From the IMG/VR virus record IMGVR_UViG_2541047905_000021: 29,596 nt of DNA, one strand, 5' to 3'. Origin of the DNA: a virus. Lineage: Duplodnaviria; Heunggongvirae; Uroviricota; Caudoviricetes. This document shows, piece by piece, positions 3,254 to 29,596 of this stretch. The position numbers and the translations under genes are program-made. Each line of letters starts with the position of its first letter. Within the stretch, counting starts at the first letter, position 1. Below the pieces are notes generated by a model. The model ran no database searches. It saw only the letters and a program-made list of their open reading frames with translations, and was not told where the DNA came from.

Positions 3254-3525
3254 GTATTCGTATCGAAATTGGCGAACGTTATGTCGTTACCAGTGACAGC
3301 TTTCAGTTTATTCTCCACGAGAAAAAGAGAGCGGAAAGCGGTAAAAACGCCGGTCAGGAATGGCTGGCGGTGGTTGGTTATTACCCGAAATTAAGCCAGC
3401 TCGTTTCCGGCCTGATGCATCACGATATTCTGACCGGAAGCGCAAAGTCTTTTGCTGATTTAAACGCGCAGGTTGAGCAACTCAGCAAGCGTTGTTCAGA
3501 GGCTTTTGGCTCATATGGCCGTTAA
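3250..3525 (+). CDS. Hypothetical early protein in the position of P2 orf83
   Basis: 91 aa. It overlaps its neighbours by 4 nt at its start and 11 nt at its end. Confidence 0.6.
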   Translation: MSIRIEIGERYVVTSDSFQFILHEKKRAESGKNAGQEWLAVVGYYPKLSQLVSGLMHHDILTGSAKSFADLNAQVEQLSKRCSEAFGSYGR

Positions 3526-5791
3526 AGCCTCCGGGCGTTTTGTCCCTCCGTCAACATTTGCTGCAGGTACCGGTAAGACGTTTACCGGTGCTTATGCATG
3601 GAACGCGCCACGCGAGGCCGTCGGGCGCGAAAGACCCCTTACACGTGACGAGATGCGTCAGGTGCAAGGTGTTTTATCCACGATTAACCGCCTGCCTTAC
3701 TTTTTGCGCTCGCTGTTTACTTCACGCTATGACTACATCCGGCGCAATAAAAGCCCGCTACACGGGTTTTATTTCCTCACATCCACTTTTCAGCGTCGTT
3801 TATGGCCGCGTATTGAGCGCGTTAATCAGCGCCATGAAATGAATACCGACGCGTCGTTGCTGTTTCTGGCAGAGCGTGACCATTATGCGCGCCTGCCTGG
3901 AATGAATGACAAGGAGCTGAAAAAGTTTGCCGCCCGTATCTCATCGCAGCTTTTCATGATGTATGAGGAACTCTGCGATGCCTGGGTGGATGCGCATGGC
4001 GAAAAAGAATCGCTGTTTACGGATGAGGCGCAGGCTCACCTGTATGGTCATGTTGCTGGCGCTGCACGTGCTTTCAATATTTCCCCGCTTTTCTGGAAAA
4101 AATACCGTAAAGGACAGATGACCACGAGGCAGGCATATTCTGCCATTGCCCGCCTGTTTAACGATGAGTGGTGGACTCATCAGCTTAAAGGCCAGCGTAT
4201 GCGCTGGCATGAGGCGTTACTGATTGCTGTCGGGGAGGTCAATAAAGACCGTTCACCTTATGCCAGTAAACATGCCATTCGTGATGTGCGTGCGCGCCGC
4301 CAGGCAAATCTGGAATTTCTTAAATCGTGTGACCTTGAAAACAGGGAAACCGGCGAGCGCATCGACCTTATCAGTAAGGTGATGGGCAGTATTTCTAATC
4401 CTGAAATTCGCCGGATGGAGCTGATGAACACCATCGCCGGTATTGAGCGTTACGCCGCCGCAGAGGGTGATGTGGGGATGTTTATCACGCTTACCGCGCC
4501 GTCAAAGTATCACCCGACACGTCAGGTTGGAAAAGGCGAAAATAAAACCGTCCAGCTTAATCACGGCTGGAATGATGAGGCATTTAATCCAAAGGATGCG
4601 CAGCGTTATCTCTGCCGTATCTGGAGCCTGATGCGCACGGCATTCAAGGATAATGATTTACAGGTCTACGGTTTGCGAGTCGTCGAGCCACACCACGACG
4701 GAACGCCGCACTGGCATATGATGCTTTTTTGTAATCCACGCCAGCGTAACCAGATTATCGAAATCATGCGTCGCTATGCGCTCAAAGAGGATGGCGACGA
4801 AAGAGGAGCCGCGCGAAACCGTTTTCAGGCAAAACACCTTAACCGGGGCGGTGCTGCGGGATATATCGCGAAATACATTTCAAAAAATATCGACGGCTAT
4901 GCACTGGATGGTCAGCTCGATAACGATACCGGCAGACCGCTGAAAGATACTGCGGCGGCTGTTACCGCATGGGCGTCAACGTGGCGCATCCCGCAATTTA
5001 AAACGGTTGGCCTGCCGACAATGGGAGCTTACCGTGAGCTACGTAAATTGCCTCGCGGCGTCAGCATTGCTGATGAATTTGACGAACGCGTGGAGGCTGC
5101 ACGCGCCGCCGCAGACAGTGGCGATTTTGCGCTGTATATCAGCGCGCAGGGCGGGGCAAATGTCCCGCGCGATTGTCAGACTGTCAGGGTTGCCCGTAGC
5201 CCGTCGGATGACGTTAACGAGTACGAGGAAGAAGTCGAGAGAGTGGTCGGCATTTACGCGCCGCATCTCGGCGCGCGTCATATTCATATCACCAGAACGA
5301 CGGACTGGCGCATTGTGCCGAAAGTTCCGGTCGTTGAGCCTTTGACTTTAAAAAGCGGCATCGCCGCGCCTCGGAGTCCTGTCAATAACTGTGGAAAGCT
5401 CACTGGTGGTGATACTTCGTTACCGGCTCCCACACCCTCTGAGCACGCCGTAGCAGTGCTTAATCTGGTTGATGACGGTGTCATCGAATGGAGTGACCCG
5501 GAGGTCGTGAGGACGCTCAGGGATGCATTAAAACACGGCCTGAAAACACCAAATCGTCAGCAAAGAAACGGAAGCCCGTTAAAACCACATGAAATAGCAC
5601 CGTCGGCCAGACTGACCCGGTCGGAACGATTGCAAATTACCCGTATCCGCGTTGACCTCGCTCAGAACGGTATCAGGCCGCAACGATGGGAGCTTGAGGC
5701 GCTGGCGCGTGGCGCGACCGTAAATTATGACGGGAAAAAATTCACGTATCCGGTTGCTGATGAGTGGCCGGGGTTCTCGTTACCCATTTGA
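3515..5791 (+). CDS. A: Replication initiation endonuclease gpA, a rolling-circle HUH nickase
   Basis: 758 aa from MAVKASGRF, compared with 761 aa for P2 gpA. It has the HUH-type motif EPHHDGTPHWHMMLF and the two-tyrosine motif GYIAKYISKN. The longer ORF starting at 3473 would overlap orf83 extensively. Confidence 0.9.
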   Translation: MAVKASGRFVPPSTFAAGTGKTFTGAYAWNAPREAVGRERPLTRDEMRQVQGVLSTINRLPYFLRSLFTSRYDYIRRNKSPLHGFYFLTSTFQRRLWPRIERVNQRHEMNTDASLLFLAERDHYARLPGMNDKELKKFAARISSQLFMMYEELCDAWVDAHGEKESLFTDEAQAHLYGHVAGAARAFNISPLFWKKYRKGQMTTRQAYSAIARLFNDEWWTHQLKGQRMRWHEALLIAVGEVNKDRSPYASKHAIRDVRARRQANLEFLKSCDLENRETGERIDLISKVMGSISNPEIRRMELMNTIAGIERYAAAEGDVGMFITLTAPSKYHPTRQVGKGENKTVQLNHGWNDEAFNPKDAQRYLCRIWSLMRTAFKDNDLQVYGLRVVEPHHDGTPHWHMMLFCNPRQRNQIIEIMRRYALKEDGDERGAARNRFQAKHLNRGGAAGYIAKYISKNIDGYALDGQLDNDTGRPLKDTAAAVTAWASTWRIPQFKTVGLPTMGAYRELRKLPRGVSIADEFDERVEAARAAADSGDFALYISAQGGANVPRDCQTVRVARSPSDDVNEYEEEVERVVGIYAPHLGARHIHITRTTDWRIVPKVPVVEPLTLKSGIAAPRSPVNNCGKLTGGDTSLPAPTPSEHAVAVLNLVDDGVIEWSDPEVVRTLRDALKHGLKTPNRQQRNGSPLKPHEIAPSARLTRSERLQITRIRVDLAQNGIRPQRWELEALARGATVNYDGKKFTYPVADEWPGFSLPI

Positions 5792-5860
5792 GTAAAAATA
5801 CAACGTGATTTGATATGGCATTGAATGGCTTATGCGGAGCAGTTATGGGGCAGCAGAAGG

Positions 5861-5898
5861 TCAATAGCATGCTGAATTAGAAGGCTAAATGCTATTGA
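5861..5898. other. Hairpin or inverted repeat TCAATAGCAT-N18-ATGCTATTGA
   Basis: Perfect 10-bp arms in non-coding DNA about 70 bp after the A stop. No T-run follows, so it is not a canonical terminator. Confidence 0.5.
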
Positions 5899-5972
5899 GT
5901 GACTAGCATGTCGGTAAGGACAGCCGTTTGATCCTGGTCATAAAAGGCCATCCATTTAGTCTAATAAAATCA

Positions 5973-6001
5973 TTGCGGGTAACCTTATGTCGACGCATAA
6001 T
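5973..6001 (+). promoter_or_regulatory. Candidate sigma70 promoter for the plus-strand sRNA: -35 TTGCGG (5973-5978), 17-bp spacer, -10 CATAAT (5996-6001)
   Basis: The hexamers and spacing were read directly from the sequence. An AT-rich tract (CTAATAAAAT) lies upstream. The predicted start is about 6008-6010, right at the 15-nt repeat. Confidence 0.35.
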
Positions 6002-6006
6002 TCGTC

Positions 6007-6021
6007 TTGAGCGAAGTCTTG
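6007..6021. repeat. 15-bp direct repeat, copy 1 (TTGAGCGAAGTCTTG)
   Basis: It is identical to 6271-6285. It lies at the predicted 5' end of the plus-strand sRNA. Confidence 0.95.
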
Positions 6022-6081
6022 TCAGTCTTTCATCGTATTGATGATGGGCGCAAAAAAACCACCCTGGCAGGTGGTTTTTTT
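6009..6081 (+). ncRNA. Candidate antitoxin-like sRNA of about 73 nt, made of a 5' seed, a small stem-loop (6030-6044) and an intrinsic terminator
   Basis: A promoter-like element lies upstream. The 5' sequence is complementary to the minus-strand leader at 6285-6271. There is an internal stem TCATC/GATGA and a terminal GC stem followed by a U7 tail. No credible ORF is present. Confidence 0.4.
6052..6081. terminator. Bidirectional rho-independent terminator (AAAAAAACCACC-CTGGCA-GGTGGTTTTTTT)
   Basis: A GC stem, CCACC/GGTGG, is flanked by an A7 run on one side and a T7 run on the other, so it can terminate transcription in both orientations. It sits 12 nt beyond the stop of the minus-strand 37-aa ORF. 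Confidence 0.8.
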
Positions 6082-6093
6082 GTTTGAAGCATA

Positions 6094-6207
6094 TTAAAGC
6101 ATAATGCTGACATTGATATTACTGACGTTTACTGACAAACCACTCGGACTACCGTTTGGATAGCCAAAGAGGGCCAGAACGAGAATGCAGTAATAGCATT
6201 TCTTCAT
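6094..6207 (-). CDS. 37-aa hydrophobic small peptide (MKKCYYCILVLALFGYPNGSPSGLSVNVSNINVSIML); candidate type I toxin or small membrane protein
   Basis: AGGAGG lies 4 nt upstream of the ATG. The peptide has a KK N-terminus, then about 15 hydrophobic residues, then a polar tail. The terminator follows immediately downstream. I do not recognise the sequence as any named family. Confidence 0.55.
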   Translation of the reverse strand: MKKCYYCILVLALFGYPNGSPSGLSVNVSNINVSIML

Positions 6208-6211
6208 ATTG

Positions 6212-6264
6212 CCTCCTGTAAGTAGAGGGCAACTTCCACCGGTATATGCGCTTCTTAGGTGGAA
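6212..6264 (-). promoter_or_regulatory. Predicted leader structures. One hairpin is CCUCU/GGAGG (6228-6212) and would occlude the SD. The other is a 7-bp hairpin UUCCACC/GGUGGAA (6264-6234).
   Basis: The complementary segments were read directly from the sequence. The SD-occluding stem is only 5 bp, one of them a G-U pair, so the evidence is modest. Confidence 0.35.
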
Positions 6265-6270
6265 TGACTT

Positions 6271-6285
6271 TTGAGCGAAGTCTTG
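6271..6285. repeat. 15-bp direct repeat, copy 2 (TTGAGCGAAGTCTTG), in the leader of the minus-strand peptide mRNA
   Basis: It is identical to 6007-6021. On the minus-strand RNA it reads CAAGACUUCGCUCAA, 64-78 nt upstream of the peptide AUG. Confidence 0.95.
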
Positions 6286-6351
6286 CCCTGAAATAATGCT
6301 CTGTTTAAACGCAAAGTGATTTGGCATATCACCGAACAGAGAGCCGGAAAA

Positions 6352-6401
6352 ACACAACATATAGTATGTCGTTGTTTCTAGACATACATTCTATGTTGTG
6401 T
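6352..6401. other. Large imperfect palindrome: ACACAACATATAGTATGTC, a 10-nt spacer, then GACATACATTCTATGTTGTGT
   Basis: The arms pair over 10 bp plus 7 bp around a small internal bulge. The palindrome overlaps the candidate promoter of the peptide mRNA. Confidence 0.6.
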
Positions 6402-6416
6402 AACAAGGGCTTTGCA
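6388..6416 (-). promoter_or_regulatory. Tentative promoter for the peptide mRNA: -35 TGCAAA (6416-6411), 17-bp spacer, -10 TAGAAT (6393-6388)
   Basis: The -10 is good and the -35 is weak. An AT-rich tract lies upstream. This is the best of several weak candidates. Confidence 0.25.
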
Positions 6417-6562
6417 TTAAACATGTTTGAGATTTTATTGATGTAGCTCAAAGTAAAAAACAGAGACTACGGATGATAAGGTCTTGAAAGCAATGTAAAT
6501 TTTTTAAAGTTGCCAATTGCTTAAAAATGTACAGTTGCGGTATGGCGTACTTAAAAAGCTAT

Positions 6563-6591
6563 GCATGCAACAAGTGAATGTTTTTGCATGC
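6563..6591. other. Inverted repeat GCATGCAA-N13-TTGCATGC
   Basis: It has 8-bp perfect arms, each containing the palindrome GCATGC, in the AT-rich tract before cos. Confidence 0.45.
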
Positions 6592-6685
6592 GTTGGGGAT
6601 GTCCGTTCAGGCTGCGTGCGGTCAGGACTGGTGCGGATCCATAGTATCTATGCAACTGCATTAAAACCGCCCCGTGAAGCGGGCG

Positions 6686-6704
6686 GGCGAGGCGGGGAAA
6701 GCAC
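6686..6704. other. cos: cos cohesive-end sequence GGCGAGGCGGGGAAAGCAC (19 nt)
   Basis: It matches the P2 19-nt cohesive end as I remember it. It lies between the cargo region and the end of Q, exactly where the P2 map places cos. A GC hairpin (6667-6686) abuts it. Confidence 0.8.
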
Positions 6705-6845
6705 TGCGCGCTGGCGGTGGTGCTGATTTTATTTTTTCGGCGTCTCAGCGCGTCGTGATGGCGTTTAGATTGTGTGCCGGGGCGTCGGTGTGTCTGCGGG
6801 CTGTTTTGCGTGGAGGTGAGCGTGTGAGGGCGTGATGACGGGGTG

Positions 6846-6869
6846 TAAAAAAGCCGCCCGCAGGCGGCG
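6846..6869 (-). terminator. Intrinsic terminator after Q (GCCGCC-TGC-GGGCGGC-TTTTTT on the minus strand)
   Basis: A GC-rich stem plus a T6 run begins 5 nt after the Q stop. Confidence 0.8.
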
Positions 6870-6873
6870 ATGT

Positions 6874-7908
6874 TCAGCCGTTGTCAGTGTCCAGTGAGTA
6901 GTTTTTAAAGCGGATGACCTCCTGACCGAGCCAGCCGTTTATCTCGCGGATCCTGTCCTGTAGCGGGATAAGCTCATTGCGGACAAAGACCTTTGCCACT
7001 TTCTCAATATCACCCAACGACCCGACGTTCTCCGGCTTGCCGCCCATCAACTGAAAGGGGATGCGGTGCGCGTCCAGCAGGTCAGTGGCGCTGGCTTTTT
7101 TGATATTAAAAAAATCGTCCTTCGTCGCTACTTCACTGAGGGGGATAATTTTAATGCCGTCAGCTTTCCCCTGTGGCGCATAGAGAAACAGATTTTTAAA
7201 GTTGTTGCGGCCTTTCGACTTAACCATGTTTTCGCGAAGCATTTCGATATCGTTGCGATCCTGCACGGCATCGGTGACGTACATGATGTATCCGGCATGT
7301 GCGCCATTTTCGTAATACTTGCGGCGGAACAGCGTGGCCGACTCATTCAGCCAGGCAGAGTTAAGGGCGCTGAGATATTCCGGCAGGCCGTACAGCTCCT
7401 GATTAATATCCGGCTCCAGCAGGTGAAACACGGAGCCGGGCGCGAAAGGTATCGGCTCGTTGAAGGACGGCACCCACCAGTAAACATCCTCCTCCACGCC
7501 ACGGCGGGTATATTTTGCCGGTGAGGTTTCCAGTCTGATGACCTTACCGGTGGTGCTGTAACGCTTTTCCAGAAACGCATTACCGAACACCAGAAAATCC
7601 AGCACAAAGCGGCTGAAATCCTGCTGGGAAAGCCACGGGTGCGGGATAAATGTCGAGGCCAGAATATTGCGTTTGACGTAAATCGGGGAGCTGTGATGCA
7701 CGGCAGCACGCAGGCTTTTTGCCAGACCGGTAAAGCTGATTGGTGGCTCATACCATCTGCCGTTACTGATGCACTCGACATAATCCAGAATGTCACGGCG
7801 GTCGAGTACCGGCACCGGATCACCAAAGGTGAATGCCTCCATTTTCGGGGCGCTGGCGGTCATTGTTTTTGCCGCAGGTTGCGGTGTTTTCCCTTTTTTC
7901 TTGCTCAT
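6874..7908 (-). CDS. Q: Portal protein gpQ
   Basis: 344 aa, the same as P2 gpQ, in the conserved position beside cos. Its start overlaps the P stop. Confidence 0.9.
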   Translation of the reverse strand: MSKKKGKTPQPAAKTMTASAPKMEAFTFGDPVPVLDRRDILDYVECISNGRWYEPPISFTGLAKSLRAAVHHSSPIYVKRNILASTFIPHPWLSQQDFSRFVLDFLVFGNAFLEKRYSTTGKVIRLETSPAKYTRRGVEEDVYWWVPSFNEPIPFAPGSVFHLLEPDINQELYGLPEYLSALNSAWLNESATLFRRKYYENGAHAGYIMYVTDAVQDRNDIEMLRENMVKSKGRNNFKNLFLYAPQGKADGIKIIPLSEVATKDDFFNIKKASATDLLDAHRIPFQLMGGKPENVGSLGDIEKVAKVFVRNELIPLQDRIREINGWLGQEVIRFKNYSLDTDNG

Positions 7909-17092: not shown

Positions 17093-18001
17093 ATGCCGAT
17101 TATCGACCTGAACCAGCTACCCGCACCGGATGTGGTCGAGGAGCTGGACTTTGAAACCATTCTTGCCGAACGCAAGGCGACACTGATTTCCCTTTACCCG
17201 GAAGACCAGCAGGAGGCGGTCGCCCGTACCCTGACGCTGGAATCTGAGCCTCTCGTCAAACTGCTGGAGGAAAATGCTTATCGTGAGCTTATCTGGCGTC
17301 AGCGTGTGAATGAGGCCGCACGGGCGGTAATGCTGGCTTGTGCCGCCGGTAATGACCTTGATGTGATTGGTGCCAATTACAACACCACGCGTCTGACTAT
17401 CACCCCGGCAGATGATTCGACTATCCCGCCGACACCGGCAGTGATGGAATCTGATACCGATTATCGTCTGCGTATTCAGCAGGCGTTTGAGGGCTTAAGC
17501 GTCGCCGGGTCGGTGGGAGCCTATCAGTATCATGGTCGCAGTGCCGACGGGCGTGTCGCGGATATCTCTGTCACCAGTCCGTCTCCGGCCTGCGTCACCA
17601 TCTCTGTGCTGTCCCGTGAAAATAACGGTGTCGCATCCGAAGACCTGCTGGCGGTGGTGCGTAACGCCCTTAATGGCGAGGACGTCAGACCGGTGGCCGA
17701 CCGCGTGACCGTGCAGTCTGCCGCCATCGTTGAATACCAGATAAACGCCACGCTTTACCTTTACCCTGGTCCCGAAAGCGAACCCATTCGCGCGGCCGCC
17801 GTGAAAAAGCTGGAAGCGTACATCACGGCACAGCACCGGCTGGGGCGCGACATCCGTCTGTCTGCCATTTATGCCGCTTTGCATGTGGAAGGCGTGCAGC
17901 GTGTCGAACTGACTGCACCGCTGGCCGACATCGTGCTCAACAGTACGCAGGCGTCTTTCTGTACCGAATACCGCGTCGTGACCGGAGGCTCGGATGAGTG
18001 A
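17093..18001 (+). CDS. J: Baseplate wedge protein gpJ
   Basis: 302 aa, the P2 gpJ length. Confidence 0.85.
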   Translation: MPIIDLNQLPAPDVVEELDFETILAERKATLISLYPEDQQEAVARTLTLESEPLVKLLEENAYRELIWRQRVNEAARAVMLACAAGNDLDVIGANYNTTRLTITPADDSTIPPTPAVMESDTDYRLRIQQAFEGLSVAGSVGAYQYHGRSADGRVADISVTSPSPACVTISVLSRENNGVASEDLLAVVRNALNGEDVRPVADRVTVQSAAIVEYQINATLYLYPGPESEPIRAAAVKKLEAYITAQHRLGRDIRLSAIYAALHVEGVQRVELTAPLADIVLNSTQASFCTEYRVVTGGSDE

Positions 18002-18524
18002 TTCGCGACTGCTGCCGACCGGCTCATCACCGCTTGAAGTTGCTGCCGCAAAAGCCTGTGCGGAAATTGAAAAAACGCCGGTCAGGATTCGTGAACTGTG
18101 GAACCCGGATACCTGTCCGGCAAATCTGCTGCCGTGGCTGGCGTGGGCGTTTTCGGTCGACAGGTGGGATGAAAAGTGGCCGGAAGCGACAAAACGCGCC
18201 GTTATCCGCGATGCCTATTTCATCCACTGTCATAAAGGCACTATAGGCGCAATCCGGCGTGTGGTGGAGCCGCTCGGTTATCTCATTAACGTAAAGGAAT
18301 GGTGGGAGACAAACGACCCGCCCGGAACCTTCCGCCTTGATATCGGCGTACTGGAAAGCGGCATCACGGAGGAGATGTATCTGGAAATGGAACGGCTGAT
18401 TGCCGATGCCAAACCCGCAAGTCGCCACCTTATCGGTCTGAACATTATCCAGGACATTCCCGGCTGTCTGTATACAGGCGGTGTGGTCTGTGATGGTGAT
18501 GTTATTACTGTTTATCCCGGATAA
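17994..18524 (+). CDS. I: Baseplate protein gpI
   Basis: 176 aa, the P2 gpI length. Confidence 0.85.
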   Translation: MSDSRLLPTGSSPLEVAAAKACAEIEKTPVRIRELWNPDTCPANLLPWLAWAFSVDRWDEKWPEATKRAVIRDAYFIHCHKGTIGAIRRVVEPLGYLINVKEWWETNDPPGTFRLDIGVLESGITEEMYLEMERLIADAKPASRHLIGLNIIQDIPGCLYTGGVVCDGDVITVYPG

Positions 18525-18534
18525 GTGAGAAACA

Positions 18535-21144
18535 ATGAGCACGAAATTTAAAACCGTTATCACTACTGCCGGAGCCGCAAAGCTGGCAGCCGCCACTGTC
18601 CCCGGCGGGAAAAAAGTAAACCTGTCTGCAATGGCCGTGGGTGACGGTAATGGCAAATTGCCGGTGCCGGATGCCGGTCAGACGAAGCTGGTGCATGAGG
18701 TCTGGCGTCATGCCCTGAATAAAGTCAGCGTGGATAATAAGAATAAAAACTATATCGTGGCTGAACTGGTTGTTCCGCCAGAAGTGGGCGGCTTCTGGAT
18801 GCGTGAGCTTGGTCTGTATGACGATGCCGGAACACTGATTGCGGTATCCAACATGGCAGAAAGCTATAAGCCAGAACTGGCTGAAGGCTCAGGACGTGCG
18901 CAGACCTGCCGCATGGTTATTATTCTCAGCAACGTGGCGTCCGTTGAGCTGAGTATTGATGCCAGCACAGTGATGGCGACGCAGGATTACGTCGATGACA
19001 AAATCGCAGAGCATGAGCAGTCCCGCCGCCATCCTGACGCCACGCTGACAGAAAAAGGTTTTACTCAGTTAAGCAGTGCAACAAACAGCACCAGTGAAAA
19101 GCTGGCGGCAACGCCAAAAGCGGTCAAGGCAGCAAATGACAACGCAAATTCACGTCTGGCGAAAAATCAGAACGGTGCAGATATCCAGGATAAATCAGCT
19201 TTTCTGGACAATATTGGTGTTACCAGCCTGACGTTTATGAAAAACAACGGCGAAATGCCTGTTGATGCCGACCTGAATACATTTGGTCCTGTTAAGGCTT
19301 ATTCAGGTATCTGGTCTAAAGCAACATCCACCAACGCAACACTGGAGAAAAACTTCCCTGAAGATAATGCTGTCGGTGTGCTTGAGGTTTTTACTGGCGG
19401 CAATTTTGCAGGCACGCAACGCTATACCACACGTGACGGAAATTTGTATATCCGCAAACTCATTGGAACATGGAATGGTAATGATGGACCATGGGGAGCA
19501 TGGCGCCATGTTCAGGCTGTAACGCGAGCTCTAAGTACGACCATTGACCTTAACTCTCTCGGTGGCGCAGAACATTTAGGTCTATGGAGAAACAGCAGTT
19601 CAGCAATAGCTTCTTTTGAACGACATTACCCCGAGCAGGGAGGAGACGCGCAGGGCATTCTGGAAATTTTCGAAGGTGGGCGATATGGACGCACACAGCG
19701 TTATACAACCAGTAACGGGACTATGTATATTCGCGGCCTGACAGCCAAATGGGATGCAGAAAATCCACAGTGGGAAGACTGGATCCAAATTGGTTATCAG
19801 ACCAGTAGTACCTTCTATGAGGATGACCTGGATGATTTGATGTCTCCGGGTATTTACAGTGTGACAGGCAAAGCGACCCACACCCCAATCCAGGGGCAGT
19901 CTGGTTTTCTGGAAGTCATCAGGCGCAAGGATGGTGTCTATGTTTTGCAACGTTACACGACCACAGGAACCAGCGCAGCTACAAAAGACCGTTTATATGA
20001 GCGAGTGTTTCTTGGTGGCTCATTTAACGCGTGGGGGGAGTGGCGACAGATTTATAACTCAAACTCTTTGCCGTTAGAGTTGGGTATCGGTGGCGCAGTG
20101 GCAAAACTCACCAGCCTGGACTGGCAGACATACGATTTTGTGCCGGGCAGTCTGATAACCGTTCGGCTGGATAACATGACCAATATTCCCGACGGTATGG
20201 ACTGGGGCGTCATTGATGGCAACCTGATAAACATCTCAGTCGGTCCGAGTGATGATTCTGGTTCGGGACGCTCAATGCATGTATGGCGCAGCACTGTAAG
20301 TAAAGCCAACTACCGCTTTTTTATGGTGCGTATTTCAGGAAATCCGGGAAGCCGCACGATTACAGCAAGACGAGTACCAATCATTGACGAAGCCCAGACA
20401 TGGGGCGCGAAACAGACATTCAGTGCTGGCCTTTCTGGTGAACTGTCCGGCAATGCGGCGACAGCAACAAAGCTGAAAACGGCAAGGACAATTAACGGCG
20501 TAAAATTTGACGGCTCGGCAAATATTGAAGCGTTTCCGCCAGGTGTTCCGCTGCCGTGGCCATCAGATACACCACCTGCAGGCTATGCAATTATGCAGGG
20601 GCAGACGTTTGATAAGGCAGCATATCCTAAACTGGCTATTGCCTATCCTTCTGGTGTTATTCCAGATATGCGCGGCTGGACAATCAAGGGCAAACCCGCC
20701 AGTGGACGTGCTGTATTGTCACAGGAACAGGACGGGATTAAATCGCATACTCACAGCGCCAGTGCGTCAAATACGGATTTAGGGACGAAAACGACCAGTT
20801 CATTTGATTACGGCACGAAGACAGTCAGTACGTTTAACCATGGCACAAAATCAACGAACAATACGGGCAATCATACGCACACTGTCGGTGGTGTTTATGG
20901 CGGCGACTCTGTCGGTGGAAAACAGCGTGTACAGGCTTCAGGAAACAATCAGGTGTCCAGCACAGCCGGAGCGCACGCCCATACGGTGGATATTGGTCAG
21001 CATAACCACACTGTAGGTATTGGTGCCCATGCACACACTGTAGCATTAGGTGCGCACGGGCACACCATCACGGTAAATGCTACGGGTAATACCGAAAACA
21101 CCGTCAAAAACATCGCATTTAACTATATTGTGAGGCTTGCATAA
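18535..21144 (+). CDS. H: Tail fibre protein gpH, a mosaic with a P2-like N-terminal third and a divergent, enlarged distal part
   Basis: 869 aa, compared with 669 aa in P2. The N-terminus [20 protein letters not shown] is P2 H-like. The protein contains three tandem repeats of about 60-90 aa, a collar motif ([25 protein letters not shown]) and C-terminal HxH repeats. Confidence 0.9.
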
Positions 21145-21722
21145 TGGCTTTCAGAATGAGTGCAGAAGCACAAACTATCCGCGTTTTCAATTTACTTAAT
21201 GGAACCAATGAGTTTATTGGCGAAAGTGATGCATATATTCCGCCGTATACTGGCCTGCCTGCAAACAGTACAGATATTGCACCACCTGATATTCCTGCTG
21301 GTTATGCAGCCGTTTTCAATGCAGATGAAATGAAATGGGAACTGATGGAAGACCATCGCGGAAAGACCGTCTACGAAACGAAAACAGGAGCAGCCATTTA
21401 TATTTCTGAACTTGGCGTATTACCTCCAGACGTGACAGCTATTTCCCCGGAGGGGGATTATCAGAAATGGGACGGAAATGCGTGGGTGAATGATGAGAAT
21501 GCAGAACGTGATGCGCTTGTCAGAGCGGCGGAGTCTCAGAAGAAAGAGCAGATTGCATATGCAGGTGAAATTATTGCCACTCTGCAGGATGCTGTCGATT
21601 TAGATATGGCTACCGAGGAAGAAAAGTTAAGCCTGACACACTGGAAAAAATACCGTGTGCTACTGAATCGCGTTCAGCCGGAAAATGCCCCGGATATTGA
21701 ATGGCCGGAACTACCGCAATAA
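21144..21722 (+). CDS. G: Tail fibre assembly chaperone gpG (Tfa family)
   Basis: 192 aa, immediately downstream of H and overlapping it (TAATG). Confidence 0.8.
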
Positions 21723-21728
21723 ACACAG

Positions 21729-21750
21729 GCGGGCTTATTGTCCGCTTTTT
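21729..21750 (+). terminator. Intrinsic terminator after G (GCGGGC-TTATT-GTCCGC-TTTTT)
   Basis: A hairpin with one mismatch is followed by a T-run, 7 nt after the G stop. Confidence 0.6.
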
Positions 21751-21763
21751 CTTTATCGGTGGT

Positions 21764-21781
21764 TGTGCTGTCGATTAGCCA
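21764..21781 (+). promoter_or_regulatory. Late promoter PF activator-site candidate TGT-N12-CCA
   Basis: The motif and flanks match the P/O region. GAAAAT at 21817-21822 is a candidate -10, about 55 bp from the dyad centre, upstream of FI. Confidence 0.45.
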
Positions 21782-21854
21782 ACCGGGACAAATAGCCTGA
21801 CATCTCCGGCACAACTGAAAATACCACTCACCCATTAACCACGGAGTTAAACGG

Positions 21855-23045
21855 ATGAGTGACTATCATCACGGCGTGCAGGTGCTGGAGATTAACGACG
21901 GCACCCGCGTCATTTCCACCGTATCTACTGCCATTGTCGGCATGGTCTGCACGGCCAGCGATGCGGATGCGGAAACCTTCCCCCTCAATAAACCGGTGCT
22001 GATTACCAATGTGCAGAGCGCAATTGCAAAGGCTGGTAAAAAAGGCACGCTGGCGGCATCGTTGCAGGCCATCGCCGACCAGTCAAAACCGGTCACCGTT
22101 GTCGTGCGTGTGGAAGACGGCACCGGCGACGACGAGGAAACGAAACTCGCGCAGACCGTTTCCAATATCATCGGCACCACCGACGAAAACGGTCAGTACA
22201 CCGGACTGAAAGCCCTGCTGGCGGCGGAGTCGGTAACCGGTGTTAAACCGCGTATTCTCGGCGTGCCGGGACTGGACACCAAAGAGGTGGCTGTTGCACT
22301 GGCATCAGTCTGTCAGAAGCTGCGCGCTTTCGGGTATATCAGCGCATGGGGCTGTAAAACTATTTCCGAGGTGAAAGCCTACCGCCAGAATTTCAGCCAG
22401 CGTGAGTTGATGGTCATCTGGCCGGATTTCCTCGCATGGGATACGGTCACCAGTACCACCGCCACCGCGTATGCCACCGCCCGTGCGCTGGGTCTGCGCG
22501 CTAAAATCGACCAGGAGCAGGGCTGGCATAAAACACTGTCCAACGTTGGGGTGAACGGTGTTACCGGCATCAGCGCATCTGTATTCTGGGATTTGCAGGA
22601 GTCCGGCACCGATGCTGACCTGCTTAACGAGTCAGGCGTCACAACACTGATTCGCCGTGACGGTTTCCGCTTCTGGGGTAACCGTACCTGCTCTGATGAC
22701 CCGCTGTTCCTCTTTGAAAACTACACCCGCACCGCGCAGGTACTGGCCGACACGATGGCTGAGGCGCACATGTGGGCGGTGGACAAGCCCATCACCGCAA
22801 CGCTGATTCGCGACATCGTTGACGGCATCAATGCCAAATTCCGAGAGCTGAAAACAAACGGCTATATCGTGGATGCGACCTGCTGGTTCAGTGAAGAATC
22901 CAACGATGCGGAAACCCTCAAGGCCGGAAAACTGTATATCGACTACGACTATACCCCGGTGCCTCCTCTTGAAAACCTGACCCTGCGCCAGCGTATTACT
23001 GATAAATACCTGGCAAATCTGGTCACCTCGGTTAACAGCAATTAA
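21855..23045 (+). CDS. FI: Contractile tail sheath protein gpFI
   Basis: 396 aa, the P2 FI length. Confidence 0.9.
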   Translation: MSDYHHGVQVLEINDGTRVISTVSTAIVGMVCTASDADAETFPLNKPVLITNVQSAIAKAGKKGTLAASLQAIADQSKPVTVVVRVEDGTGDDEETKLAQTVSNIIGTTDENGQYTGLKALLAAESVTGVKPRILGVPGLDTKEVAVALASVCQKLRAFGYISAWGCKTISEVKAYRQNFSQRELMVIWPDFLAWDTVTSTTATAYATARALGLRAKIDQEQGWHKTLSNVGVNGVTGISASVFWDLQESGTDADLLNESGVTTLIRRDGFRFWGNRTCSDDPLFLFENYTRTAQVLADTMAEAHMWAVDKPITATLIRDIVDGINAKFRELKTNGYIVDATCWFSEESNDAETLKAGKLYIDYDYTPVPPLENLTLRQRITDKYLANLVTSVNSN

Positions 23046-28175: not shown

Positions 28176-28204
28176 TTGTTTTATAAGGATAAATTAACTA
28201 AAAT
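28176..28204 (+). promoter_or_regulatory. Candidate ogr promoter: -35 TTGTTT (28176-28181), 17-bp spacer, -10 TAAAAT (28199-28204)
   Basis: The hexamers and spacing were read from the sequence. It lies in an AT-rich tract between D and ogr. Confidence 0.45.
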
Positions 28205-28238
28205 GGCACTATCAACAAAACCGGAAGAGGTGCTCGCG

Positions 28239-28457
28239 ATGTTTCATTGTCCTTTATGCCAGCATGCCGCACATGCGCGTACAAGCCGCTATATCACTGA
28301 CACGACAAAAGAGCGTTATCACCAGTGTCAGAACGTGAATTGCAGCGCCACGTTCATCACCTATGAGTCGGTACAGAGATACATCGTGAAGCCGGGAGAA
28401 GTCCACGCCGTAAGGCCGCACCCGTTGCCGTCAGGGCAGCAAATTATGTGGATGTGA
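28239..28457 (+). CDS. ogr: Late gene transcriptional activator Ogr (zinc finger)
   Basis: 72 aa from MFHCPLCQHAAHARTSRYI, the P2 Ogr length, with the CxxC...CxxxxC zinc-finger pattern. Confidence 0.9.
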   Translation: MFHCPLCQHAAHARTSRYITDTTKERYHQCQNVNCSATFITYESVQRYIVKPGEVHAVRPHPLPSGQQIMWM

Positions 28458-28612: not shown

Positions 28613-28693
28613 ATCCTCAATTTGCCTGCTGCTTAATGCATTGCAGATGATTTGCTTCCGTTATACTAGCGTCAGTTGATAGCGGGAGTATTT

Positions 28694-29596
28694 ATGAATC
28701 AATCTTATGGACGGCTGGTCAGTCGGGCGGCGATTGCTGCGACGGCGATGGCTTCGCTGCTATTGCTGATTAAAATTTTTGCATGGTGGTATACCGGGTC
28801 GGTGAGTATTCTCGCCGCGCTGGTGGATTCGCTGGTGGATATCGGCGCGTCGTTGACGAATTTATTGGTGGTGCGATATTCCCTGCAACCTGCCGACGAT
28901 AATCACTCGTTTGGTCACGGTAAAGCTGAGTCCCTCGCGGCGCTGGCGCAAAGTATGTTTATCTCCGGTTCGGCACTATTCCTGTTTTTGACGGGTATTC
29001 AACATCTGATATCTCCAACACCGATGACAGATCCAGGCGTCGGGGTTATCGTGACAATTGTGGCGCTAATTTGTACGATTATCCTTGTCTCGTTTCAGCG
29101 TTGGGTGGTGCGGCGGACGCAAAGCCAGGCGGTGCGGGCTGATATGCTACATTACCAGTCTGATGTTATGATGAACGGCGCAATTCTGCTGGCGCTGGGG
29201 TTGTCCTGGTACGGCTGGCATCGCGCCGATGCTCTGTTTGCATTGGGAATCGGCATCTATATTTTATATAGCGCGTTACGCATGGGATATGAGGCGGTAC
29301 AGTCATTACTGGATCGCGCATTGCCTGATGAGGAACGGCAAGAAATTATTGATATCGTGACTTCCTGGCCGGGTGTTAGCGGCGCTCACGATCTTCGCAC
29401 GCGGCAGTCAGGGCCGACCCGCTTTATTCAGATTCATTTGGAAATGGAAGACTCTCTGCCTTTGGTTCAGGCACATATGGTGGCGGATCAGGTAGAGCAG
29501 GCTATTTTACGGCGTTTTCCGGGATCGGATGTAATTATCCATCAGGACCCCTGTTCCGTCGTACCCAGGGAGGGTAAACGGTCTATGCTTTCATAA
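28694..29596 (+). CDS. fieF: Cation diffusion facilitator (ferrous iron/zinc efflux pump) FieF/YiiP, a host gene
   Basis: 300 aa from [36 protein letters not shown], recognisably E. coli FieF. The stop is at the last base of the window. Confidence 0.95.

Follow-up and report, generated by a model that had tools for sequence, protein, structure and literature searches.

A mosaic tail fibre of a P2-like prophage, probably combining a P2-type anchor, a knob cassette and a T4 gp37-type tip

The stretch of viral DNA analysed here (IMG/VR record IMGVR_UViG_2541047905_000021; 29,596 nucleotides (nt), hereafter the window) carries, at the position occupied by gene H in bacteriophage P2, a tail-fibre gene of 869 amino acids (aa; 18535-21144, plus strand). 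We conclude that its product, H, very probably serves an intact P2-like (Peduovirus) prophage as receptor-binding tail fibre and is built from exchangeable cassettes: an N-terminal anchor of the P2 H type, a cassette of three knob repeats followed by a fourth domain, and a tip resembling that of T4 gp37, with a matching assembly chaperone encoded immediately downstream. The gene was taken from the list of open reading frames (ORFs) and matches PHROG tail-fibre families with E-values down to 7e-253. A previous reading of the same DNA (the original prediction) had pointed to a mosaic fibre within 19280-21144, an interval that falls inside the single ORF 18535-21144 (+). Domain and repeat homology, the knob fold class, the DNA breakpoints and the variation among alleles were computed here. 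Coordinates are positions in the window, amino acid numbers refer to H unless another protein is named, and the features of H and of its chaperone all lie on the plus strand.

The P2-type anchor and the mosaic junctions

The first 202 residues (18535-19140) constitute an anchor of the P2 H type. Pfam Phage_tail_fib (PF12571) covers aa 1-151 with E=3.8e-57, and a Phage_fiber_2 repeat (E=2.8e-21), which is also common to the S protein of phage Mu, begins within the anchor (aa 170-211); aa 167-233 are matched by two structures of Mu S, 5YVQ and 8JU3. The gene lies between the homologues of P2 genes I (17994-18524, its upstream neighbour) and G, upstream of FI. Thus both the N-terminal baseplate-attachment domain, PF12571, and the gene position are those of a P2 gpH-type protein. 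In chimeras between P2 and the R2 pyocin, the N-terminal ~164 residues of the pyocin fibre are sufficient for attachment (cited in PMC6116203).

The likeness to P2 does not extend much further. Classic P2 H (669 aa) aligns over aa 1-207 only, at 84% identity, and beyond aa 207 in the protein or nt 19140 in the DNA there is no similarity to classic P2 H. The P2-like region, originally put at about 230 residues, ends instead at aa 202-207. Across the receptor-binding C-terminal part, H is not collinear with classic P2 H, which has neither the knob triplet nor the collar nor the His-x-His (HxH) needle described below. H had also been credited with about 200 residues more than P2 H. The difference in length stands, and its reading as extra residues has to be abandoned: an insertion of ~200 residues relative to P2 H is ruled out, the change being a replacement of everything from aa 208 onward. 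H is a Peduovirus fibre by its anchor and its context, and not an orthologue of P2 H in its binding part.

The mosaic structure is also visible in the DNA, where similarity to P2 stops at 19140 and resumes, at 97% identity, at 21726, upstream of FI and just beyond the stop codon of the chaperone gene. When different relatives are used for comparison, breakpoints are found at ~19140, 20495 and 21725. Escherichia phage 899 (96.5%) and phage P2SIDE7 (89.7%) share with H the anchor and the whole knob cassette up to 20495, and then continue with a P2-like C-terminus. Two or more cassettes, exchanged independently of one another, have replaced the part that follows aa 207. The junctions lie within conserved linkers and leave the domain boundaries intact. 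Over 18501-22000 the G+C content is 0.45-0.52, versus 0.55-0.61 in the flanking tail genes.

A short patch near the first junction, at 19132-19212 (aa 200-226), differs from the otherwise 96%-identical phage 899 (YDNAEKRLQKDQNGGDIPDKGAFLDNV). It is identical, except for a final Ile/Val, to the corresponding part of fibre P0055, which has a different, non-P2 N-terminus. This patch has the appearance of a short tract of gene conversion inside the Phage_fiber_2 repeat.

The T4 gp37-type tip and its chaperone

The C-terminal part of H, aa 666-869, reads as a tip of the T4 gp37/lambda Stf type, made up of collar, needle and small head loop. When the protein was compared with the PDB by phmmer, aa 651-869 matched residues 16-242 of the chain in 2XGF, the crystal structure of the T4 gp37 tip (T4 gp37 785-1026), with E=2.9e-76, so that the similarity extends over the entire crystallised fragment. 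BLASTP gave 59% identity to T4 gp37 over aa 634-869 (251 columns, E=2e-72). The gp37 of the T4-like phage PTE-Eco15 is 79% identical in the tip and 78.5% identical in DNA over 20542-21144; this DNA similarity begins at 20542, the first nucleotide of the Collar domain. That domain (aa 670-717; 20542-20685) was identified by Pfam (Collar, PF07484; E=7.2e-10; score 39.1 bits, above the cutoff of 24) and, when aligned to 2XGF, is equivalent to part of domain D10 of T4 gp37. The name collar had previously been attached to a 25-letter motif located upstream of it, which turns out to be a linker shared with other fibres (see below). This tip module was found in 621 phage records, among them T4-like, P2-like and lambdoid phages and further phages of Enterobacterales; 357 of the records cover at least 80% of the tip.

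The needle region (20746-21063) contains six HxH motifs, starting at aa 738, 780, 814, 823, 832 and 841, in the order HTH, HTH, HAH, HNH, HAH and HGH. Both this order and the 11-residue tail at the end of the protein are as originally described. Twelve of the 13 histidines of the last 219 residues sit in HxH motifs. In 20,000 shuffles of these 219 residues the mean number of HxH motifs was 0.7 and the maximum 5; none reached six, which rules out that the motifs arise by chance from His richness. The last four belong to a 9-residue repeat, G-x-H-x-H-T-V/I-x-x, part of which is picked up by Tandem Repeats Finder as a 27-bp repeat (2.2 copies, 21007-21065).

The needle can be compared with that of T4 motif by motif. 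T4 gp37 carries HxH motifs at 883, 915, 929, 966, 980, 989 and 998, and equivalents of six of these seven positions (883, 929, 966, 980, 989 and 998) are kept in H, while the motif at T4 915 is replaced by TFNH-GTK. Relative to T4, about 4 residues are missing from the ascending strand, and the FGTSS insertion of T4 is lacking in the descending one. We read this as a needle that would be one metal layer shorter than that of T4, both strands being shortened to match. The HxH motifs of T4 gp37 coordinate iron (PMC6957217, PMC6116203), the seven motifs answering to seven buried iron atoms, and H929 and H931 have been named as iron ligands (PMC6957217). By analogy, six octahedral Fe sites are predicted in the trimer of H, against seven Fe sites in T4. 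The number of motifs varies within the family, with six also in PTE-Eco15 and eight in the Stf of phage HK630. Beyond the last motif comes the conserved C-terminal tail (aa 844-869; 21064-21141), whose last 20 residues are those of T4 gp37.

Between the second and the third HxH motifs lies the tip (head) loop (aa 783-813; 20881-20973), which is hypervariable and aligns with T4 residues 932-965. In T4 this stretch includes residues shown by mutagenesis to bind lipopolysaccharide (LPS) and OmpC (PMC6957217), and the head loop of H is, by analogy, the predicted receptor-contact surface.

The H stop codon overlaps the start codon of the next ORF (21144-21722), which encodes, at the P2 gene G position, a tail-fibre assembly chaperone (Tfa) of 192 aa. 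Pfam Caudo_TAP (PF02413) matches aa 72-192 of the chaperone with E=3.3e-40. This protein aligns over its full length with the lambda-type Tfa of HK630, at 65% identity (E=2e-93); it is 29% identical to T4 gp38 (E=2e-19) and resembles P2 G (175 aa) in its C-terminal 105 aa only, at 39%. The alignment shows an N-terminal half in common with gp38 and a C-terminal helical part in common with P2 G. Therefore, the exchanged unit consists of the tip plus at least the tip-specific half of the chaperone. This bears out the suggestion, based originally in part on the chaperone length of 192 versus 175 aa, of an exchanged receptor-binding module. According to a published model (PMC9608196, citing North et al. 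2019), Tfa proteins are modular, with a variable N-domain for binding to the fibre tip and a conserved C-domain for trimerisation; the two-part likeness of the chaperone fits this. Another possibility, that the 192-aa protein is a gp38 adhesin of the T2/S16 type, is ruled out: it contains 10 glycines in 192 aa and no glycine runs, and matches both PF02413 and lambda-type Tfa.

In T4 as in the window, the order collar, needle, head is followed directly by a gene for a chaperone of the Caudo_TAP (gp38/Tfa) family. What differs is the support, since the T4 tip sits on a 780-residue gp37 shaft and this one on a P2 anchor and a knob cassette. On the lambdoid side of the family, the C-terminus of the Stf of Ur-lambda/HK630 is 56% identical to the tip and ends with the same 11 residues. 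The HK630 Stf differs by its eight HxH motifs, by a longer head region and by an N-terminus that attaches to a siphovirus tail.

The knob cassette, the linker and the variable zones

Evidence from profiles and from a structure model supports the assignment of aa 233-510 as three tandem pyocin-type knob (beta-prism) domains. The repeats occupy aa 233-328 (19231-19518), aa 329-421 (19519-19797) and, for the third and divergent copy, aa 422-510 (19798-20064). The motif QRYTT recurs at aa 295, 388 and 472, and LE[VI] at aa 283, 376 and 459. A BLAST of H against itself gave the identity match only; pairwise BLASTP, Smith-Waterman alignment with shuffles and hhalign were used for the repeats. Repeats 1 and 2 are 36% identical over 88 aa (BLASTP E=3e-22; Smith-Waterman z=27 versus shuffles). 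As a single sequence, repeat 3 is related to repeat 1 with a BLASTP E-value of 4e-4 and to repeat 2 with E=0.017. With profiles built from 13 homologues, hhalign gave probabilities of 99.7% for repeats 1 and 2 (E=4e-27), 80.6% for repeats 1 and 3 (E=1e-5) and 65.8% for repeats 2 and 3 (E=6e-5). The three tandem repeats of the original prediction hold the cores of three homologous units of ~85-95 aa.

The label "knob-like" given to these repeats finds support in the predicted fold. An AlphaFold2 monomer model of aa 225-640, based on a 13-sequence alignment, has a mean pLDDT (predicted local distance difference test) score of 64, with values of 70-85 in most knob blocks, and shows 6, 5 and 5 beta-strands in the successive repeat units. 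Such tandem antiparallel sheets of 5-6 strands are what characterises the pyocin-type knob fold. A Foldseek search against viral models returned many tail fibres, the top match being the T-even distal fibre of Shigella phage JK23. No knob match was obtained over aa 233-510 in Pfam or NCBIfam, and the NCBIfam scan gave no family for either H or the 192-aa protein. NCBI names 99%-identical proteins "pyocin knob domain-containing protein", presumably through a model outside the Pfam and NCBIfam libraries that were scanned. The knob-domain proteins listed by Buth et al. 2018 include the R2 fibre, phi11 gp45, phage K gp144 and T4 gp34 (PMC6116203).

The knobs are followed by a fourth, beta-rich domain of a non-knob type (aa 511-625; 20065-20409), which had gone unnoticed in the original prediction. 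It is conserved along with the knobs, accompanying the cassette in all relatives, including the T-even gp37 of JK23. That it could be a degenerate fourth knob is ruled out by hhalign, which gives a probability below 1% to any knob unit.

Two known fibres help to place this cassette. The R2/R1 pyocin fibre (PA0620; PDB 6CL5/6CL6, 6CU2) has two knobs, one Fe site and a C-terminal foot with a lectin fold, whereas H has three knobs, an extra domain and a needle with six predicted sites. The JK23 fibre has the whole cassette, its three knobs and its fourth domain included, and is 53% identical to H over 99% of aa 215-650; the linker motif precedes the cassette there. It differs in having a T-even gp37 N-terminus and a C-terminus devoid of a T4-type collar or HxH needle.

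The cassette is joined to the tip by a conserved inter-module linker (aa 626-664; 20410-20526), inside which the similarity to phages 899 and P2SIDE7 ends, at 20495. The 25-letter motif mentioned above is its distal part (aa 640-664; 20452-20526). This motif is found on both sides of the knob cassette in the relative P0078 and on its N-terminal side in JK23 gp37, a distribution that fits a role as recombination joint. In P0078 the linker motif, ~45 aa long, forms a direct repeat that brackets the knob cassette, which could permit gain or loss of the whole cassette through homologous recombination.

The architecture of H is not unique. It is found in Peduovirus P24A7b (LR595887/NC_049390), whose H has 874 aa and is 76% identical, as well as in 85 of 5426 complete Escherichia coli genomes; the exact allele is in none of these 5426 genomes, the best having 92.9% DNA identity. 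In E. marmotae, a partial protein has the same sequence as H throughout aa 151-869 (100% identity). The alleles of P24A7b and of E. coli M15 and ST131 all have the P2 anchor, three knobs, the fourth domain, the linker, the T4-type tip and a lambda-type Tfa, the P24A7b chaperone being 96% identical to the 192-aa protein. All of them depart from H in the sequence of the knobs, and those of P24A7b and ST131 depart from it in the tip loop as well. Every component thus comes from a well-described family, and the complete architecture is already present in sequenced phages and many prophages. In the literature we found nothing specific on a P2-like fibre with a gp37-type tip or on OmpC as its receptor.

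Comparison of the alleles reveals two separate variable zones, aa 301-510 and aa 781-810, within frames that are otherwise 93-100% identical. The first, which includes knob repeat 3, is 47-90% identical across prophage alleles that are otherwise nearly the same. In E. coli M15, identity falls to 47-77% through most of aa 301-510 and the tip is identical. The ST131 allele shows the same knob divergence as M15 and, in addition, a divergent tip loop: over aa 781-810 the identity is 31% to ST131 and 25% to P24A7b, with flanks at 80-100%. The variable loop is bracketed by conserved HxH motifs. Taken together, the M15 and ST131 alleles suggest that shuffling acts on the knob cassette and on the tip loop independently of each other. 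In R-type pyocins, Knob2 and the C-terminal domain are the diverse parts (PMC6116203), and the variation of H parallels theirs. For the adhesins of T-even phages, Tetart et al. reportedly advanced the idea of recombination at "His-boxes", with which the pattern of variation in H agrees.

Prophage setting and function of the fibre

Between 4600 and 29596, 86-88% of the window aligns at 96-97% identity to isolated Peduoviruses (such as Escherichia phage 899, Yersinia phage GMG73 and P24A7b), and the window is an almost complete P2-like prophage. An integrase-sized ORF lies at its left end. Towards the right end lie an ogr-like zinc-finger ORF (28176-28457) and, after it, an ORF (28676-29596) that, in our reading of its sequence, resembles the host cation-efflux (cation-diffusion-facilitator) gene fieF/yiiP. 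Therefore, the right end of the prophage and its attachment site are placed at ~28.5-28.65 kb. Antisense ORFs inside H (e.g. 19600-19950) received no support and were disregarded.

Two places in the window correspond to cargo positions. The region 5800-6870, between the homologue of replication gene A (3473-5791) and a portal-side gene (6874-7908, minus strand), has a low G+C content (0.40 at 6001-6500). It contains short ORFs only, none above 88 aa, and no gene stands out among them; P2 has its tin/old-type cargo at this place. Downstream of H, only 132 nt (21723-21854) separate the chaperone stop codon from the start of FI (sheath). A terminator-like hairpin with a T-run (21727-21747, plus strand) marks the end of the H-G transcription unit. 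Classic P2 has the lysogenic-conversion gene Z/fun between G and FI, and P24A7b has three small genes; the Z/fun gene is absent from the window and neither it nor the P24A7b genes occur at 21723-21854, and therefore this hotspot is empty here.

The trimeric state of H, its iron, its receptor and the mode of action of the chaperone we infer as follows. Residues 1 to ~160 would anchor what is most likely a homotrimer to the baseplate. The three knobs and the one further domain would form a beaded shaft. In the needle, each HxH motif would contribute two His per chain, so that each would hold one buried, octahedrally coordinated Fe(II) in the trimer, and the six Fe(II)-His6 sites would stiffen the needle and keep its chains in register. 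The apical loop (aa 783-813) would contact the receptor, which may be a porin such as OmpC, LPS or both, and the variable knobs would probably add a second contact, of a saccharide type. For its folding and trimerisation, the tip would need the lambda-Tfa-type protein encoded next to it, whose N-domain would be matched to the tip. A host range different from that of P2, as proposed in the original prediction, is a reasonable inference.

Some observations weigh against this picture. Most of the residues shown to be critical in the T4 tip are not conserved in H. Its loop lacks 3 residues relative to T4 and has a largely different sequence, the similarity being confined to an aromatic residue and the Gly-rich VGG core; therefore, naming OmpC or LPS amounts to a guess by family and not a prediction. 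The fourth domain could not be modelled, an AlphaFold2 monomer of aa 501-650 having a pLDDT of 36. Finally, T4 gp37 requires gp57A in addition to gp38.

A rival view concerns the weight given to the tip. The three knobs could be the main determinant of host range, with a binding surface for saccharides (O-antigen or LPS core) and a needle that is mostly mechanical or secondary. We regard this as possible and as the less favoured view. The zone aa 301-510 is as variable as the tip, and in M15 it is the knobs that diverge while the tip is identical; in R-type pyocins, Knob2 is the most diverse part and has been proposed to determine the killing spectrum, while the K1F endosialidase binds sialic acid through a domain that is knob-like (PMC6116203). 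The BASEL authors, moreover, consider that conserved gp37-like tips may be mechanical in some phages (PMC11990801). Yet the tip loop is hypervariable too, within well-conserved flanks, and corresponds to the receptor surface mapped in T4. Recognition by the knobs and recognition by the tip are not exclusive, and dual contact is likely. A more specific version of this idea, which we advance only tentatively, is that H is a dual-site fibre: the triple-knob cassette would recognise one surface molecule and the short, six-iron needle another, the pair being, for instance, a porin and a glycan of the O-antigen or core. Exchange at the conserved linker and at the HxH "His-box" joints would reshuffle each site independently of the other across Escherichia prophages and T-even phages.

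It is rather unlikely that the 192-aa protein stays on the tip of the virion fibre and joins in receptor recognition, instead of acting transiently as T4 gp38 does. Its 65% identity to lambda-type Tfa speaks for retention, since the chaperones of Ur-lambda and Mu are present in the mature phage and Mu Tfa contributes to host recognition, according to PMC9608196. On the other hand, the 192-aa protein serves a tip of the T4 gp37 type, and in T4 the corresponding chaperone, gp38, is absent from the virion; the 192-aa protein also has no glycine-rich adhesin motifs. As for the fibre as a whole, illegitimate recombination is frequent in the fibre genes of prophages, and many database homologues of H are partial, mostly owing to short contigs, so that H might belong to a decaying remnant in which the recombinant fibre no longer assembles or functions. 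This seems most improbable: H and the chaperone gene are intact, overlapping ORFs without frameshift, flanked by intact P2-type tail and baseplate ORFs; the greater part of the window aligns to plaque-forming Peduoviruses, and P24A7b, an isolated phage, has the same architecture; and junctions located in conserved linkers keep the domain boundaries.

For specialists, H is a new allele of a known, mosaic kind of tail fibre, an ordinary case of low surprise that opens no long-standing question. What it provides is a map of the domains and junctions (~19140, 20495, 21725) of a natural P2-type fibre equipped with a T4-type needle and a matching Tfa, which is of modest practical use where P2/P4 particles or R-type pyocins are to be given new specificities, or where the host range of prophages in Escherichia is to be predicted. 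If the dual-site reading were true, host range would be set combinatorially, and the pair of alleles carried by H would represent a specificity not yet described. The principle of module exchange has reportedly been established since the early 1990s, through work ascribed to Haggard-Ljungquist et al. 1992, Sandmeier 1994 and Tetart et al. 1996-98, and H adds one more case of such exchange between temperate phages, P2-like and lambdoid, and virulent T-even phages.

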